Program-made: the position numbers and the translations under genes
Shown here: piece by piece, positions 21,165 to 45,167 of the stretch
Numbering within the stretch: the first letter of the stretch is position 1
Layout of the letters: each line of letters opens with the position of its first letter
The notes under the pieces: generated by a model
Seen by the model: the letters and a program-made list of their open reading frames with translations, nothing else
Told to the model about the DNA's origin: nothing
The model's database searches: none
Assembly (NCBI RefSeq): GCF_044647545.1
Contig: NZ_CP172818.1
Reading direction: 5' to 3' (one strand)
Source of the DNA: Escherichia coli
Lineage (GTDB): Bacteria; Pseudomonadota; Gammaproteobacteria; Enterobacterales; Enterobacteriaceae
Length of the DNA: 64,000 nt

Positions 21165-23219
21165 ATGGAACTGAAAGCGACAACGCTTGGAAAACGTCTG
21201 GCACAGCACCCTTACGATCGGGCGGTGATCCTCAATGCCGGGATTAAAGTCTCCGGCGATCGCCACGAATACCTTATTCCTTTCAATCAATTACTGGCGA
21301 TTCACTGTAAGCGCGGTCTGGTATGGGGCGAGCTGGAATTTGTACTGCCGGACGAAAAAGTGGTGCGTCTGCACGGCACCGAATGGGGCGAGACGCAGCG
21401 TTTTTACCATCATCTTGATACTCACTGGCGGCGGTGGAGTGGGGAGATGGGCGAAATTGCGTCTGGCGTTTTACGTCAGCAACTGGATTTGATTGCCACG
21501 CGCACCGGAGAAAATAAATGGCTGACGCGTGAGCAAACCTCTGGTGTGCAGCAACAAATCCGCCAGGCTTTGTCGGCGTTGCCGTTGCCGGTTAACCGAC
21601 TGGAAGAATTCGATAACTGCCGTGAGGCGTGGCGTAAATGTCAGGCCTGGTTGAAGGACATTGAAGGCGCTCGGTTGCAGCATAATCAGGCGTATACCGA
21701 AGCCATGCTTACCGAGTATGCGGATTTTTTCCGCCAGGTCGAGTCTTCACCGCTGAATCCGGCGCAGGCCCGGGCAGTCGTTAATGGCGAGCATTCTTTG
21801 TTAGTGCTGGCTGGTGCAGGAAGCGGAAAAACGTCGGTGCTGGTGGCCCGTGCAGGCTGGTTGCTGGCACGTGGTGAAGCGTCCCCTGAGCAAATTTTAT
21901 TGCTGGCGTTTGGTCGCAAAGCCGCTGAAGAGATGGACGAGCGTATTCGCGAACGGCTACATACCGAAGACATTACCGCACGCACATTTCATGCGCTGGC
22001 GCTGCATATTATTCAGCAGGGCAGCAAAAAAGTTCCGATAGTCAGCAAACTGGAAAATGATACCGCTGCCCGTCATGAACTTTTTATTGCTGAGTGGCGC
22101 AAGCAATGCAGCGAAAAGAAAGCGCAGGCGAAGGGCTGGCGGCAATGGCTGACGGAAGAAATGCAGTGGTCAGTGCCAGAAGGTAACTTCTGGGATGATG
22201 AAAAATTACAGCGTCGTCTTGCCTCACGCATCGATCGTTGGGTAAGTCTGATGCGGATGCACGGTGGTGCACAGGCAGAAATGATTGCCAGTGCACCCGA
22301 AGAGATTCGCGATCTGTTCAGTAAACGTATCAAGTTGATGGCTCCGTTATTAAAAGCCTGGAAAGGTGCGCTGAAGGCAGAAAACGCTGTCGATTTTTCG
22401 GGCCTTATTCACCAGGCGATTGTGATTCTGGAGAAAGGTCGCTTTATCAGCCCGTGGAAGCATATTCTGGTTGATGAATTTCAGGATATCTCGCCGCAGC
22501 GCGCAGCGTTGTTAGCGGCATTACGCAAGCAAAACAGTCAGACGACGTTGTTCGCCGTTGGTGATGACTGGCAGGCGATTTATCGCTTCAGCGGTGCGCA
22601 AATGTCGCTCACCACCGCTTTCCATGAAAACTTTGGTGAAGGTGATCGCTGCGATTTAGACACGACTTACCGTTTTAACAGTCGTATCGGTGAGGTGGCA
22701 AACCGGTTTATTCAGCAGAACCCAGGCCAGCTGAAAAAGCCGCTAAACAGCTTAACCAATGGAGACAAAAAAGCCGTCACGTTATTGGATGAGAGCCATC
22801 TTGACGCTTTGCTGGATAAGCTCTCTGGTTATGCCAAACCGGAAGAGCGCATTCTGATCCTGGCGCGTTACCATCACATGAGGCCTGCCAGCCTGGAAAA
22901 AGCGGCAACACGCTGGCCGAAGTTGCAAATCGACTTTATGACCATTCATGCCAGCAAAGGGCAACAGGCGGATTACGTCATCATCGTTGGCTTGCAGGAG
23001 GGGAGTGATGGTTTTCCGGCTGCGGCGCGGGAGTCGATTATGGAAGAGGCGCTACTGCCACCGGTTGAGGATTTCCCGGACGCTGAAGAACGGCGGTTAA
23101 TGTACGTGGCGCTGACCCGGGCACGCCATCGGGTATGGGCACTGTTTAACAAAGAGAATCCCTCTCCATTTGTCGAAATACTGAAAAATCTGGATGTGCC
23201 GGTGGCGAGAAAACCGTAA
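21165..23219 (+). CDS. helD: DNA helicase IV
   Basis: 684-aa ORF from ATG at 21165 (MELKATTLGKRLAQHPYDRAV...); Walker A GAGSGKTSV; UvrD-like motifs. Confidence 0.9.
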   Translation: MELKATTLGKRLAQHPYDRAVILNAGIKVSGDRHEYLIPFNQLLAIHCKRGLVWGELEFVLPDEKVVRLHGTEWGETQRFYHHLDTHWRRWSGEMGEIASGVLRQQLDLIATRTGENKWLTREQTSGVQQQIRQALSALPLPVNRLEEFDNCREAWRKCQAWLKDIEGARLQHNQAYTEAMLTEYADFFRQVESSPLNPAQARAVVNGEHSLLVLAGAGSGKTSVLVARAGWLLARGEASPEQILLLAFGRKAAEEMDERIRERLHTEDITARTFHALALHIIQQGSKKVPIVSKLENDTAARHELFIAEWRKQCSEKKAQAKGWRQWLTEEMQWSVPEGNFWDDEKLQRRLASRIDRWVSLMRMHGGAQAEMIASAPEEIRDLFSKRIKLMAPLLKAWKGALKAENAVDFSGLIHQAIVILEKGRFISPWKHILVDEFQDISPQRAALLAALRKQNSQTTLFAVGDDWQAIYRFSGAQMSLTTAFHENFGEGDRCDLDTTYRFNSRIGEVANRFIQQNPGQLKKPLNSLTNGDKKAVTLLDESHLDALLDKLSGYAKPEERILILARYHHMRPASLEKAATRWPKLQIDFMTIHASKGQQADYVIIVGLQEGSDGFPAAARESIMEEALLPPVEDFPDAEERRLMYVALTRARHRVWALFNKENPSPFVEILKNLDVPVARKP

Positions 23220-37310: not shown

Positions 37311-38576
37311 ATGAAAGCGATCTTAATCCCATTCTTATCTCTTCTGATTCCGTTCACCCCGCAATCTGCATTCGCTCAGAGTGAGCCGGAGCTGAAGCTG
37401 GAAAGTGTGGTGATTGTCAGTCGTCATGGTGTGCGTGCTCCAACCAAGGCCACGCAACTGATGCAGGATGTCACCCCAGACGCATGGCCAACCTGGCCGG
37501 TAAAACTGGGTTGGCTGACACCGCGCGGTGGTGAGCTGATCGCCTATCTCGGACATTACCAACGCCAGCGTCTGGTAGCCGACGGATTGCTGACGAAAAA
37601 GGGCTGCCCGCAGCCTGGTCAGGTCGCGATTATTGCTGATGTCGACGAGCGTACCCGTAAAACAGGCGAAGCCTTCGCCGCCGGGCTGGCACCTGACTGT
37701 GCAATAACCGTACATACCCAGGCAGATACGTCCAGTCCCGATCCGTTATTTAATCCTCTAAAAAATGGCGTTTGCCAACTGGATAACGCGAATGTGACTG
37801 ACGCGATCCTCAGCAGGGCAGGAGGGTCAATTGCTGACTTTACCGGGCATCGGCAAACGGCGTTTCGCGAACTGGAACAGGTGCTTAATTTCCCACAATC
37901 AAACTTGTGCCTTAACCGTGAGAAACAGGACAAAAGTTGTTCATTAACGCAGGCATTACCATCGGAACTCAAGGTGAGCGCCGACAATGTCTCATTAACC
38001 GGTGCGGTAAGCCTAGCGTCAATGCTGACGGAGATATTTCTCCTGCAACAGGCACAAGGAATGCCGGAGCCGGGGTGGGGAAGGATCACTGATTCACACC
38101 AGTGGAACACCTTGCTAAGTTTGCATAACGCGCAATTTTATTTACTACAACGCACGCCAGAGGTTGCCCGCAGTCGCGCCACCCCGTTATTGGATTTGAT
38201 CATGGCAGCGTTGACGCCCCATCCACCGCAAAAACAGGCGTATGGTGTGACATTACCCACTTCAGTGCTGTTTATCGCCGGACACGATACTAATCTGGCA
38301 AATCTCGGCGGCGCACTGGAGCTCAACTGGACGCTTCCTGGTCAGCCGGATAACACGCCGCCAGGAGGTGAACTGGTGTTTGAACGCTGGCGTCGGCTTA
38401 GCGATAACAGCCAGTGGATTCAGGTTTCGCTGGTCTTTCAGACTTTACAGCAGATGCGTGATAAAACGCCGCTATCATTAAATACGCCGCCCGGAGAGGT
38501 GAAACTGACCCTGGCAGGATGTGAAGAGCGAAACGCGCAGGGCAGTGTTCGTTGGCCGGTTTTACGCAAATCGTGA
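37311..38576 (+). CDS. appA: Periplasmic phytase / acid phosphatase AppA with frameshifted, truncated C-terminus
   Basis: ATG at 37311 gives MKAILIPFLSLLIPFTPQSAFA signal peptide; RHGVRAP histidine acid phosphatase motif. Frame ends ...NAQGSVRWPVLRKS*, whereas the +1 frame reads LAGFTQIVNE (the expected AppA C-terminus, recalled) before running into GC-rich DNA. Confidence 0.85.
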   Translation: MKAILIPFLSLLIPFTPQSAFAQSEPELKLESVVIVSRHGVRAPTKATQLMQDVTPDAWPTWPVKLGWLTPRGGELIAYLGHYQRQRLVADGLLTKKGCPQPGQVAIIADVDERTRKTGEAFAAGLAPDCAITVHTQADTSSPDPLFNPLKNGVCQLDNANVTDAILSRAGGSIADFTGHRQTAFRELEQVLNFPQSNLCLNREKQDKSCSLTQALPSELKVSADNVSLTGAVSLASMLTEIFLLQQAQGMPEPGWGRITDSHQWNTLLSLHNAQFYLLQRTPEVARSRATPLLDLIMAALTPHPPQKQAYGVTLPTSVLFIAGHDTNLANLGGALELNWTLPGQPDNTPPGGELVFERWRRLSDNSQWIQVSLVFQTLQQMRDKTPLSLNTPPGEVKLTLAGCEERNAQGSVRWPVLRKS

Positions 38577-38581
38577 ATGAA

Positions 38582-38840
38582 CGGGGGGACGACGGGCGAC
38601 GGGGGCCGCGGGGAAGACGACGGGACGCGGGGCTATCCGCCAGCGCGGCTGTTCGCGTTGCGGGTCGCGGCGCGGGCCCCGTGGTGCGCCTGCCGCTGGG
38701 CGCCTGGCCTGCTCGGCCTGCGGGGGTTGGTGCGGCGGGGCCGCTTGTCCCGCCGGGCGCCGCGCGCGTCCGCGGGCGGCCGTCGGCGCTCGGCGCGGGC
38801 GGGCCGCGCCTCGGGGGCCGCCCCCCCCGGGCGCCTCTCC
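38582..38840. other. Compositionally foreign GC-rich block (about 85% GC) at the appA-cspH junction; origin unknown
   Basis: Counted 80-93% GC per 60-nt line against roughly 50% in flanks; G/C homopolymer runs (8 C at 38821-38828); open frames on both strands with Arg/Gly/Pro/Ala-rich translations and no RBS. Confidence 0.8.
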
Positions 38841-38841
38841 A

Positions 38842-39054
38842 TCAAGACAAATAAACATTTGCCGCTGTTGGTCCTCGCAGGCCATTTACGCGGCAAAATT
38901 CCACGCGTAATCCTGGTATAAGCACTTCTGCGTCGCGGGGAGTGAATGCGGAAATATGGACCTGGACTTCTTTACGACCGTCGGAGGGGATAATGAATCC
39001 TTTGCCGCTTTTGCGATCAAAGGTTTTGACAATTCCTGTCATTTTACGGGACAA
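38842..39054 (-). CDS. cspH: Cold-shock-like protein CspH
   Basis: 70-aa [40 protein letters not shown]... Confidence 0.9.
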
Positions 39055-39339
39055 ACAAATTCCTTACTGAAAATACTGCGCTGCACTATACGGGGTTAAT
39101 AAAATAAAGCCAGCGATATTTAAGACCGCCGGACGGCTAAAATAAAATTTGCTTAATCTCAATTATCATGCGTTAATAGCTGCGTCGGTTTGAAAGACAG
39201 ACAGCATACAAAGTAGTTTACTAAAGCAGTTCTCATTATCAGGCATTATCCCCTTCTTTTGAGTCTCTCTCCTGAACACTAAGTAGTTTCTGTATTAAAG
39301 CCCTGTTTGCCGAAAGGCCCAAAATGAAGGAAGTAAAAT

Positions 39340-39552
39340 ATGTCTAATAAAATGACTGGTTTAGTAAAATGGTTTAACGCAGATAAAGGTTTTGGCTTTA
39401 TCACTCCTGATGATGGCAGCAAAGACGTTTTCGTCCATTTCACCGCCATCCAGAGCAATGAATTCCGCACGCTGAACGAAAATCAGAAAGTTGAATTTTC
39501 TATTGAGCAGGGGCAACGTGGTCCCGCGGCAGCGAACGTTGTTACGCTCTAA
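39340..39552 (+). CDS. cspG: Cold-shock protein CspG
   Basis: 70-aa [40 protein letters not shown]... (RNP1-like KGFGFI). Confidence 0.95.
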
Positions 39553-41241: not shown

Positions 41242-41323
41242 GATTTTGCCAGTCCGTTAAGTTGCATACCAAATGCCACTATTCTAGTTGTTCTTAACTG
41301 GCTGATATTGATTCAAATCGCGT

Positions 41324-44056
41324 TCAGGTCTTTCTTATTAACCATGCTTCCAGAGCGGCAACACTGCGTGTAATTTCTTCGTGTGGAAGGGGGGCAGATA
41401 ATGGCTGCTGCTCCAGTTGTGCGCAAAGCTGGCTGGCGCTACGCATTCCCAGACTCGAGCAACTGCTTTTTAGCTGATGTGCGGCACGCTTTATTTTTTC
41501 GCTGTTCTGGCTGGCGCGGGCAATGTCGATTTCATCGAGAAGCGGCAGGGCATGTTGTTTAAATAATATCAGCCATTCGTGGATCTTCTCCGTCCCCATC
41601 AACTGAGCATCTTCATTGAGTTGCGATACATCCAGCGGTTGATCGTTATTGACTTGTAGTTGGAGATAGTGCGCCAGTAACTGACCGAGCACTTCACGCG
41701 GCACCGGTTTAGGGATAATCCCGCGAAATAATGAACTGGTACGCTGGCGCAACGTTTCGTCGATGACATGAGCGCTAAAGCCAATCAAAACCAGCGACGG
41801 ATATTGCTGTGCCAGTTGCCGGGCAAGCGTGATGCCGTCGATATCGGGCAGATCAAAATCCACCAGTGCGGCAGCAAACGGTTCACTATTTTGCAACGTC
41901 TCTATCGCGTGCGCGGCATTTCCTACCGCAACGACCTGCGCACCACTGGTAGTCAGCATCTCGACGGTAATTCGCTGGGTTAGCGGGTTATCTTCAATTA
42001 ACAGCAAACGTAAACCGTCCAGACGCACCGCCTGATTGACTGTTTTTGGCACGGGAGCAGTGGCAACACGTAACGGCAAGCGTAAACAAAAACAGCTTCC
42101 AACTTCCGGCGTGCTGGTGGCGCTCAGTTCGCCGCCCATCGCCTGGGCCAGACGGCTACTGATAGTCAGCCCCAGCCCGGTGCCGCCGCGTTTGCCGCTT
42201 ACCTGCACAAATGGCTGGAAGATTTCTGCCAGTTTCGCGGGATCAATACCGCAGCCGCTGTCTTCCACTTCGACCAGCCATTGCTCGCCATCAGTGCGGC
42301 TACGTAAAACGATCTGCCCTTCGTCAGTAAAACGCAGGGCGTTGCTCAACAGGTTGGTTATAACCTGACGAATACGTCGCGGATCGCCCATTAACGCGGT
42401 CGGTACATCGTCGGCAATTGCTGTTGCCAGGTGAATCGGGCGACCTTTAACCCGTCCGCTCATTAATTGCAGGGTACTTTCCAGCAGCGGGCGCGGTTCA
42501 AAGGGCTCATCGCTGACCGAAACATTCTTGCCACCCGCTTCGATAGCCGAATAATCGAGAATATCGTTGAGGATGGTCAGCAACGATTCACCAGAGTCGG
42601 TAATTGCCCGCAAATCATCACGCTGGGCATTAAGTGCGGGGTTATCTGCCAGCAGTTGCGCGGTGCCAAGAATACCGTACAGCGGTGTGCGGATCTCATG
42701 GCTCATCGCCGCCAGAAACGCCGATTTTGCCTGGCTGGCTTTTTCTGCTTCCGCCCGTGCCTGTCGGTGTTCTATCACCAGTTCCTGCAATTCAGCTGTA
42801 CGCGCTTTGACCTGCGCCGCCAGCTGTTCACGGTGGCGATTCAGTGCATGAACACTGCTGCGAAACGCATCCATCAGCCGCCCGATGGTGTCCAGCTCCC
42901 GCACGCCAGCGGTTTCCGGGAAAGGGGAGTTGATATCACCGTCCAGCAGCCGTTGCAGCGCCTGCGTTTGTTCGGCAAGTGGACGCGTGACTGAGCGATA
43001 AACCACGCGCCAGAGGATCAGAATCAGTGCGCAAAGTGAAACCATCCCCAGCAATAACAGGCTGTATTGCCCGCGTGCACTGGCTTTTTCCAGATGCGCC
43101 AGTCCGTGCTGATTACGCAGCTCAATGGTGTCGACCAGCTGACTGACTTCGCTACTAAACTGCGCGAACTGGGCGATGTTATTTTGGGCGAGAGTTTGCA
43201 GGCGATTGCTGATTTCACTGTCCTGCTGATACAGCGCCAGCAAATCGCTATATTGGCTAACGGTAGTTAACGTTGTTGCGACCTGAGCACGAACTCCCGG
43301 ATCTTCAATGCGTATTTGCCGACGTTGCAGAATTTTCACCGCATTATTGAGCTGGTGTTCCAGCGTTGCTGCATTTTTCTGGATCTGCTCCAGCCCAAGA
43401 TTCATCACCATTTGCTGCACCCGCAGGGCGCTAAGGCGCAGTTCATTCATCTGGTTAACATACTCAAGATCGATATCAATCAGCCGATCGAGTGCACTTT
43501 CTGCGGCCTGACGCTGATGTTGTTCGATCAAATCGTAAATCCCGGCCTGGGTCGCTCCGGCGGAAGTTGCCGCATTATTCGCCTGACCTTGCGCCAGGCG
43601 TGCGATTTCATCGGCGGCGGCGACTATCTGCTGACTGAGTCGCTGTTGTTGCTGGCGCAGTTGCAAACGCTGCCCCACCAGTTCCCCTTGCTGACGTAAC
43701 GAACGGGAGATCTCCTGCTCCTGTTGTTCAATAGCGGTGGTATCAAAACCTTGTTCCCGTAACGCTTGCAGCAACGCATTAATCTTCAGGCTTTGTGCGG
43801 TGAGCATTCGCCCCTGCGCCTGCCACATCTTTTCGTTATCGGCACTGGTCAGGTTCTGCGCGGCGAAAAGTTCCCAGGCGCTGGCTTCGCTCAACTGGCG
43901 CGCCATATTCATGGTAGGAATCAATGCCTGAGTGTTGTCTTTTTCCACTTGGCTGATAAAGCGCAGGTTGTACCATCCCACCAGGGTACTGGTCAGGGTT
44001 AACAGCGCCATCAGGGCAAAGCCCATCCAGAGTCTTCGGGTCAGGGTTAAATTCAC
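41324..44056 (-). CDS. torS: TMAO sensor hybrid histidine kinase TorS (start approximate)
   Basis: Long ORF with HisKA (SHEIRTPL), HATPase, receiver and HPt regions; probable GTG start at 44056 giving (M)[18 protein letters not shown]; start codon choice not verified. Confidence 0.85.
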
Positions 44057-44138
44057 GGTCGGTGCACTTAAGATGAAAAAGGTTGAGTCGCAAAGCGGAA
44101 TGCATCTAGCATAAAGCCTTATTATTGATGAGGCTATC

Positions 44139-45167
44139 ATGCGCGTACTGCTATTGTTACTTCTTTCCCTTTTCATGTTATCGGCATTTTCGGCTGATAA
44201 CCTGTTGCGCTGGCATGATGCGCAGCATTTCTCGGTGCAACCCTCTACGCCGCTTAAAACCAAACGTGCATGGAAACTGTGCGCGCTTTATCCCAGCCTG
44301 AAAGATTCATACTGGTTATCGTTGAACTATGGTATGCAGGAGGCTGCTCGCCGCTACGGTGTGGATTTAAAAGTGCTGGAGGCAGGCGGCTACAGCCAGT
44401 TGGCTACCCAGCAAGCACAAATCGACCAGTGTAAACAGTGGGGCGCAGAGGCCATTTTGCTCGGTAGTAGCACGACGTCATTTCCCGACCTGCAAAAGCA
44501 GGTAGCAAGTCTGCCGGTGATCGAACTGGTAAATGCTATTGATGCTCCCCAGGTGAAAAGCCGCGTTGGTGTACCCTGGTTTCAGATGGGCTATCAACCA
44601 GGACGATATCTGGTGCAATGGGCGCACGGTAAACCACTGAACGTGCTGTTGATGCCCGGACCCGATAACGCCGGGGGCAGTAAGGAGATGGTCGAGGGTT
44701 TTCGCGCAGCCATTGCCGGAAGCCCGGTACGTATTGTTGATATTGCGCTTGGCGATAACGATATTGAAATCCAGCGTAACCTGTTGCAGGAGATGCTGGA
44801 GCGCCATCCAGAAATCGACGTCGTTGCCGGAACGGCCATTGCGGCAGAGGCGGCAATGGGGGAAGGGCGTAACCTGAAAACACCGCTTACCGTGGTGTCG
44901 TTTTATCTTTCACATCAGGTGTATCGCGGGCTGAAGCGGGGAAGAGTGATTATGGCTGCCAGCGATCAAATGGTCTGGCAGGGGGAACTGGCGGTTGAGC
45001 AGGCCATCAGGCAATTACAGGGGCAATCGGTGTCTGATAATGTCAGCCCACCGATTTTAGTTCTGACGCCGAAAAATGCCGACCGCGAACATATCCGCCG
45101 CTCGCTGTCACCGGGGGGATTTCGTCCGGTCTATTATTATCAGCACACATCAGCGGCTAAGAAATAA
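44139..45167 (+). CDS. torT: Periplasmic TMAO-binding protein TorT
   Basis: 342-aa [28 protein letters not shown]... (signal peptide); divergent from torS. Confidence 0.9.

Follow-up and report, generated by a model that had tools for sequence, protein, structure and literature searches.

A private ultra-G+C-rich block and a nearby frameshift at the convergent appA/cspH junction of an ST648-type Escherichia coli sequence

The closest described counterpart of the locus studied here is the short, island-less junction between appA and cspH, which is present in 1,669 of 5,426 complete E. coli genomes, ST131 JJ1886 included. In relatives of our sequence that carry this junction, appA (plus strand) and cspH (minus strand) are convergent and overlap by 13 bp, and the appA frame terminates ...ARIPACALHQDK* within the end of cspH. 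In K-12-type genomes, about 9-10 kb of gfc-etk genes and IS1D separate the two: on the 3' side of cspH, K-12 has approximately 417 bp of AT-rich DNA, and then IS1D and the 9-kb gfc-etk island (group 4 capsule). When the K-12 and ST648 loci are compared, the appA-side junction of the island falls directly after GCGTGC, and in island-less lineages the appA frame runs four codons further, into cspH; thus, the C-terminal residues of AppA depend on the lineage (…PACSL versus …PACALHQDK).

Other known systems are similar to the locus in particular respects. REP/BIME, ERIC, MITEs and IS provide short non-coding inserts at gene 3' ends. When a broken chromosome is mended by illegitimate (end-joining-type) repair, insertion-deletions that contain filler DNA can result. 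Rho-dependent termination and the suppression of antisense transcription reportedly operate at convergent gene ends in E. coli (for example, Peters et al. 2012).

The stretch of DNA that was analysed, called the window below, is 64 kb long and resembles ST648-type E. coli; both flanks of the locus are essentially 100% identical to many RefSeq genomes. The closest RefSeq relative is NZ_AP022161.1 (WP5-S18-ESBL-08), from which the window differs at only four places over 64 kb: a SNP at 22230, a 1-bp (T) deletion at 38544/38545, a 253-bp block and a 2-bp deletion at 56183. The SNP, in helD, is an A in the window and a C in both aligned relatives, and is the sole substitution in 64 kb. The 2-bp (AT) deletion at 56183 is private to the window and lies between ymdF and rutG, outside any homopolymer and just 5' of the ymdF terminator hairpin (ACCGCCGG-TAAC-CCCGGCGGT, then TTTCTGTTT). 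Two genes elsewhere in the window, torS (about 41300-44260) and ycbF (about 1100-1840), carry a 'frameshifted' label in the closest RefSeq genome, to which the window is identical at both genes; these pseudogenes are older than the private changes and unrelated to the block. The features of the junction itself are as follows.

37311-38576, plus strand: appA, truncated to 421 aa from its annotated start (ORF list, protein comparison)
38544/38545, plus strand: point in appA at which one T is missing, a private frameshifting deletion 37 bp to the left of the block (alignments)
38582-38834, no strand: private 253-bp block, 85.8% G+C, in place of the native 19 bp GCACGCATACCGGCGTGCG (alignments, composition)
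38582-38642, plus strand: left sub-block, purine-rich (G+A 69%), with every A of the block (composition)
38643-38834, plus strand: right sub-block, with zero A (G 91, C 77, T 24) (composition)
38835-38841, no strand: native heptamer CTCTCCA separating the cspH stop from the block (aligned with ST648, FDAARGOS_497 and WP5-S18-ESBL-08)
38840-38854, plus strand: orphaned native end of appA, the HQDK codons and a TAA stop at 38852-38854 (formerly overlapping cspH by 13 bp; within ORF 38552-38854)
38842-39054, minus strand: cspH coding sequence, intact, 70 aa, TTG start, TGA stop (ORF list; identical copies annotated by RefSeq in ST648, FDAARGOS_497 and WP5-S18-ESBL-08)

The genes, their orientation and their flanks are the same in the window as at the native gfc-less junction of ST648, ST131 JJ1886 and others (the flanks at 100% with ST648-type genomes), and in both settings a canonical intrinsic terminator is absent between the genes. 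The window differs in that the overlap is broken, 19 bp have gone, 253 foreign bp are present and appA is frameshifted. None of the 1,669 genomes with the native junction, among the 5,426 complete E. coli genomes, contains the block there. The gfc-etk island and IS1D occupy the same position between appA and cspH, and the appA junction of the island lies within 1-18 bp of the block boundaries; however, the island is made up of annotated genes, spans about 9-10 kb and has a base composition usual for E. coli, the block has no similarity to it, and the flanks of the window are those of the island-less junction.

A first-pass annotation had identified the minus-strand ORF at 38842-39054 as cspH, with its stop codon at 38842-38844, a high-G+C block directly on its 3' side and appA converging from the far side of that block. 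RefSeq annotation and 100% protein identity bear out the identification of cspH, base composition the block, and the ORF list together with the annotation of relatives the convergence of appA. The distance from the stop codon to the block, given then as 2 bp, is in fact longer: the alignments leave seven native bases, with the block ending at 38834. The native 3' flank of cspH had also been described as lost. The sequence adjacent to the gene has indeed changed, but only the 19 bp are missing; the remainder of the flank, which is the 3' end of appA, is retained and has been pushed 253 bp away. The net gain of 234 bp (78 codons) preserves the appA frame and contains no stop codons, and the two genes, formerly overlapping, are now about 260 bp apart. 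K-12, which had been proposed as the reference, is the wrong comparator, since its cspH is followed by AT-rich DNA, IS1D and the gfc-etk island. With its boundaries corrected, the earlier observation is essentially right as a description of the sequence, and its interpretation is right in part only.

The block is composed of 123 G, 94 C, 26 T and 10 A. Its G+C content exceeds the window mean of 0.517 by about 6 SD (SD 0.055 in 250-bp windows), and it is the sole place in 64 kb that exceeds 0.68; next to the 3' end of cspH, values of 0.80-0.88 are found in 100-bp windows. The few A and T residues are segregated in a non-random manner (Mann-Whitney p = 8e-6), with 10 of 10 As within the initial 61 nt and all but two of the 26 Ts beyond, a pattern suggestive of two fragments from a strand-asymmetric source, linked in opposite orientation. 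At the left end, positions 38583-38613 (plus strand) form a canonical G-quadruplex motif, defined as four runs of at least three Gs with loops of at most 7 nt; it is the only such motif in the 64-kb window and is on the template strand for cspH transcription. The G+C content by codon position is 0.81, 0.82 and 0.94, so that two positions are too G+C-rich for coding DNA, and the period-3 G+C signal is marginal (p about 0.05, chi-square on codon-position counts). An ATG adjoining the new AppA stop (TGAATG) opens a 114-aa stop-free ORF at 38577-38921 (plus strand), which extends across the block and antisense into cspH. This ORF is without homologues and probably arises simply because the DNA contains hardly any A or T, but a gene caller could annotate it.

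Searches for the origin of the block were made at several levels. A blastn search with 11-base words against 5,426 E. coli genomes (28 Gb) gave no match and no second copy, and a comparison with plasmids and phages gave only chance-level hits (E 5e-3 to 0.8) to unrelated genes of high-G+C bacteria. Five exact 23- to 26-mers taken from three parts of the block were absent from the collections scanned (three were sought in viral_contigs, and two each in genome_contigs and metagenome_contigs); such exact-word scans detect near-identical donors only, and a diverged donor from bacteria, eukaryotes or eukaryotic viruses would escape them. At the protein level, a concatenate of the six reading frames had zero matches in either of two protein libraries, one of 5.8 billion clusters and one of 1.84 billion representatives, and the exact products of the locus, namely frameshifted AppA of 431 and 421 aa and two block ORFs, were absent from a catalogue of 153 billion gene positions. 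A search of Rfam at E <= 10 gave no family match to the block.

The block has no terminal inverted repeats, the repeat search returning imperfect internal pairs only, and inverted k-mers are rarer in it than in shuffles. Tandem repeats amount to two weak 2.4-copy rows, and k-mer self-similarity is at the shuffle level. The alignment reveals no target-site duplication; 19 native bp were deleted instead. Blastn carries the right-hand alignment 7 nt into the block (CGGGCGC versus CGTGCG), but this is not significant at such a composition, and microhomology at the junction was rejected on that ground.

Several candidate identities were considered and discarded. As an IS or MITE, the block lacks terminal inverted repeats, a target duplication, further copies and any transposase homologue; as REP/BIME or ERIC, it is contradicted by the blank blastn result in 28 Gb of E. 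coli genomes. Although inserts of these classes resemble it in being short, non-coding and placed at gene 3' ends, the block differs from them in being unrepeated in any E. coli genome, in lacking palindromic units and in its 86% G+C. A structured non-coding RNA was rejected on the Rfam result and on folding no better than that of dinucleotide shuffles (z = +1.4 in the cspH sense and +0.46 in the appA sense), and a protein-coding gene on the zero homologues and the two codon positions too rich in G+C. To consider a transition-hypermutated local copy (A to G, T to C), purine/pyrimidine and amino/keto patterns were scanned over the window, ST648-type loci and the K-12 island, and the agreement was at chance level. 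The purine/pyrimidine comparison with the K-12 gfc-etk island, which reached a maximum of about 0.64-0.66, was likewise at chance, and together with the lack of a blastn match this disposed of a gfc-etk remnant.

On the other side of the block, the sequence points to a clearer consequence, which the first-pass annotation missed: appA is frameshifted and truncated. The gene that is clearly damaged would be appA, not cspH. Every one of the best-matching E. coli genomes listed has the T that is deleted here (a 12,582-base query corresponds to 12,583 bases in each record). As a result of the frameshift, the last 25 native residues of AppA, MCSLAGFTQIVNEARIPACALHQDK, are replaced by 10 unrelated ones, SVRWPVLRKS, and the new stop codon at 38574-38576 is reached 5 nt ahead of the block. 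The shortened protein is without Cys413 and Cys430, and therefore without the C404-C413 and C155-C430 pairs, two of the four native disulfides (cysteine numbering from PMC8010977). That article, citing Berkmen et al., reports that all four are important to the production or activity of AppA. Provided that the sequence is right, this strain very probably has appA only as a pseudogene.

In contrast to appA, cspH is unaltered. The CspH protein is 100% identical to that of K-12 and to that of ST648, and from 38835 on, the coding sequence and everything upstream of it are the same as in the closest relative, with the leader and promoter region unchanged in that alignment. CspH is a divergent member of its family whose function is not known (PMC6719143), and cspH transcription is responsive in uropathogenic strains (PMC8205139). 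Upstream of the gene, a terminator-like hairpin with a T-tract lies at 39110-39132 on the minus strand, 56 nt upstream of the cspH start codon and in the same orientation as the gene. Both ST648 and K-12 conserve it, and it may serve as an attenuator in the leader or mark where a minus-strand transcript from further upstream ends. In Rfam, the cspH leader (39023-39126) gives a weak match resembling the cspA thermoregulator (E 2.2), and the cspG leader (39184-39400+) a strong one.

Our preferred reading, to which we give roughly an even chance, is that the block is a real insertion-deletion private to this strain, located at the convergent appA/cspH junction and made of filler DNA whose source was not found. 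In the proposed event, the 19 native bp, which form a small hairpin within the coding sequence of appA, would have been lost, 253 bp of non-E. coli, ultra-G+C-rich filler would have taken their place, and the linked 1-bp deletion 37 bp away would have accompanied the exchange. If the two small private deletions were scattered at random over 64 kb, one would come within 40 bp of the block with a probability of only about 0.25%; thus, the T deletion and the block are linked, biologically or technically. Lesions left by filler-DNA repair likewise combine a short deletion with an unrelated insert, are free of target duplications and terminal repeats, and may have a second small lesion nearby. The window departs from the usual lesions of this kind in that the donor was not found, the composition is extreme and such capture is rare in E. 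coli. E. coli is not known to have an efficient end-joining pathway for the capture of foreign fragments, which counts against a real insertion, as does a G+C content of 86% over 253 bp, which is abnormal for E. coli and above that of typical coding DNA in the G+C-richest bacteria. The failure to match any donor, and the absence of frameshifted AppA and of the two block ORFs among 153 billion gene positions, weigh on the same side. On this reading, the block is not an evolved element, being no gene, structured RNA, terminator or mobile element, and the locus is a one-off lesion at a natively overlapping convergent gene pair and not a novel system.

The strongest competing explanation, which we regard as a substantial possibility somewhat short of even, is that the block arose as an artefact of assembly or sequencing (from a fragment that was chimeric or a contaminant, or from a badly garbled consensus), that the 1-bp deletion is a consensus error of the same low-quality patch, and that cspH and appA are native in the organism. 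The block occurs in none of the other genomes among the 5,426 and had no match in any collection searched. Its composition is non-bacterial, and the separation of A from T is like that of a two-piece chimera. Three of the four differences from a relative otherwise identical over 64 kb are of the indel type, which is more typical of consensus error than of natural divergence, and one of them is the deletion 37 bp from the block; the single SNP is 3 nt from a GATC site. Taken together, the SNP at 22230 and the two small deletions make an indel-heavy private pattern that may point to consensus errors. The exact protein products are also missing from the very large gene catalogue. However, known technical noise does not yield 253 bp of complex, non-repetitive sequence at 86% G+C, a consensus assembler would need the block in most of the reads, and the native junction contains neither a repeat nor any other feature that breaks assemblies. 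A real G+C-rich insert that is hard to sequence would also account equally well for the neighbouring 1-bp error.

It is also conceivable, though unlikely, that the block is genuine and non-bacterial in origin, namely host- or virus-like DNA captured very recently at the convergent junction by an ST648-type extraintestinal E. coli. A sequence that is free of A over most of its length, poor in T, rich in CpG and 86% G+C presumably recalls vertebrate rDNA spacers and expansion segments, or herpesvirus repeats. As part of the same doubtful capture, the event would have introduced the only G-quadruplex motif in the 64 kb, and appA would have been knocked out subsequently or simultaneously, with its stop codon 5 nt before the insert.

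The next explanation is the one offered at first pass: that a native terminator or 3' UTR of cspH was removed, with read-through, changed stability of the cspH mRNA and new antisense transcription into appA as the outcome. We consider it improbable. The 19 missing bp form a hairpin with a 6-bp stem (-10.3 kcal/mol), 7 nt after the cspH stop, and it is the only structure removed; in the cspH sense its tail is UUCAUUCACGAUUU. This hairpin is followed only by UUCAUUCA, and hairpin and tail, like the K-12 flank, fail even a permissive terminator consensus. It is part of the appA coding sequence and also occurs in K-12, where it is 9 kb from cspH, and it differs from one lineage to another; it was rejected as a dedicated cspH terminator for these reasons. 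A consensus scan found no intrinsic terminator 3' of cspH in the window, at the native ST648-type junction or in K-12, and in the window the first run of at least three Ts in the cspH sense is 272 nt past the stop. Since the scans are negative in all three flanks, no recognisable terminator has been lost, and the claim that a native one was replaced is not supported.

The folding of RNA downstream of cspH had been proposed earlier as a check. The new 3' flank is extremely structured, with a predicted -158 kcal/mol over 341 nt, but the stability of the block is purely compositional, the shuffles folding as well or better. Antisense transcription into appA was put forward as a possible consequence, but it is not new, since the native appA frame enters cspH by 13 bp. 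The block would postpone the antisense run of cspH into appA and does not create it.

The same region can be compared with convergent gene ends at which Rho acts. As at these, the RNA downstream of the cspH stop in the window is untranslated, has an excess of C over G (C/G reaching 2.1) and lacks an intrinsic terminator. The new 3' region in the cspH sense is C-rich overall (49% C). Its proximal 100 nt, however, have a C/G ratio of 0.9-1.4 with 37-47% G and are heavily paired, and this proximal part of the block, with about 47% G in strongly paired RNA, is unlike Rho sites and unfavourable for Rho loading. Over the distal third and the antisense-appA stretch that follows the block, C/G reaches 1.6-2.1; it rises to 1.8-2.1 with 21-28% G in the distal part and further on, and ratios above 1.7 with at most 28% G occur nowhere else in the new 3' region. 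We infer that cspH transcripts would run through the block and acquire a very stable, C-rich 3' extension of about 250 nt or more, and their composition suggests that they may end in a Rho-dependent manner in the distal third or in the antisense-appA sequence beyond. Any net change in CspH output is speculative and would probably be small or nil.

Finally, it is scarcely credible that the block is an evolved element (a MITE, IS remnant or REP/BIME, a structured RNA or insulator, a small gene or a remnant of a gfc-etk-type island), since its location within 1-18 bp of the gfc-etk/appA joining point of K-12-type genomes, its stop-free ORFs of 87-114 aa on both strands and its marginal period-3 G+C signal (0.94 versus 0.81 and 0.82) are set against a single copy with none other in any E. 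coli genome, a 19-bp deletion in place of inverted repeats or a target duplication, no Rfam family and no folding beyond shuffles, no protein homologues in any frame, the expectation of long ORFs where A and T are nearly absent, and a lack of likeness to the K-12 island even in purine/pyrimidine pattern.

In practical terms, the value of the finding is as a flag: the block and the frameshift are doubtful ground for the annotation of ORFs, or for inference about appA and cspH, in this strain. If the preferred reading is correct and the insertion-deletion is real, this would be an unusual case of an E. coli chromosome that has captured orphan, ultra-G+C-rich DNA, and the phytase AppA would be inactivated. 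The biology of cspH would be little affected, as both the gene and the region that controls it are native and a recognisable terminator has not been lost.
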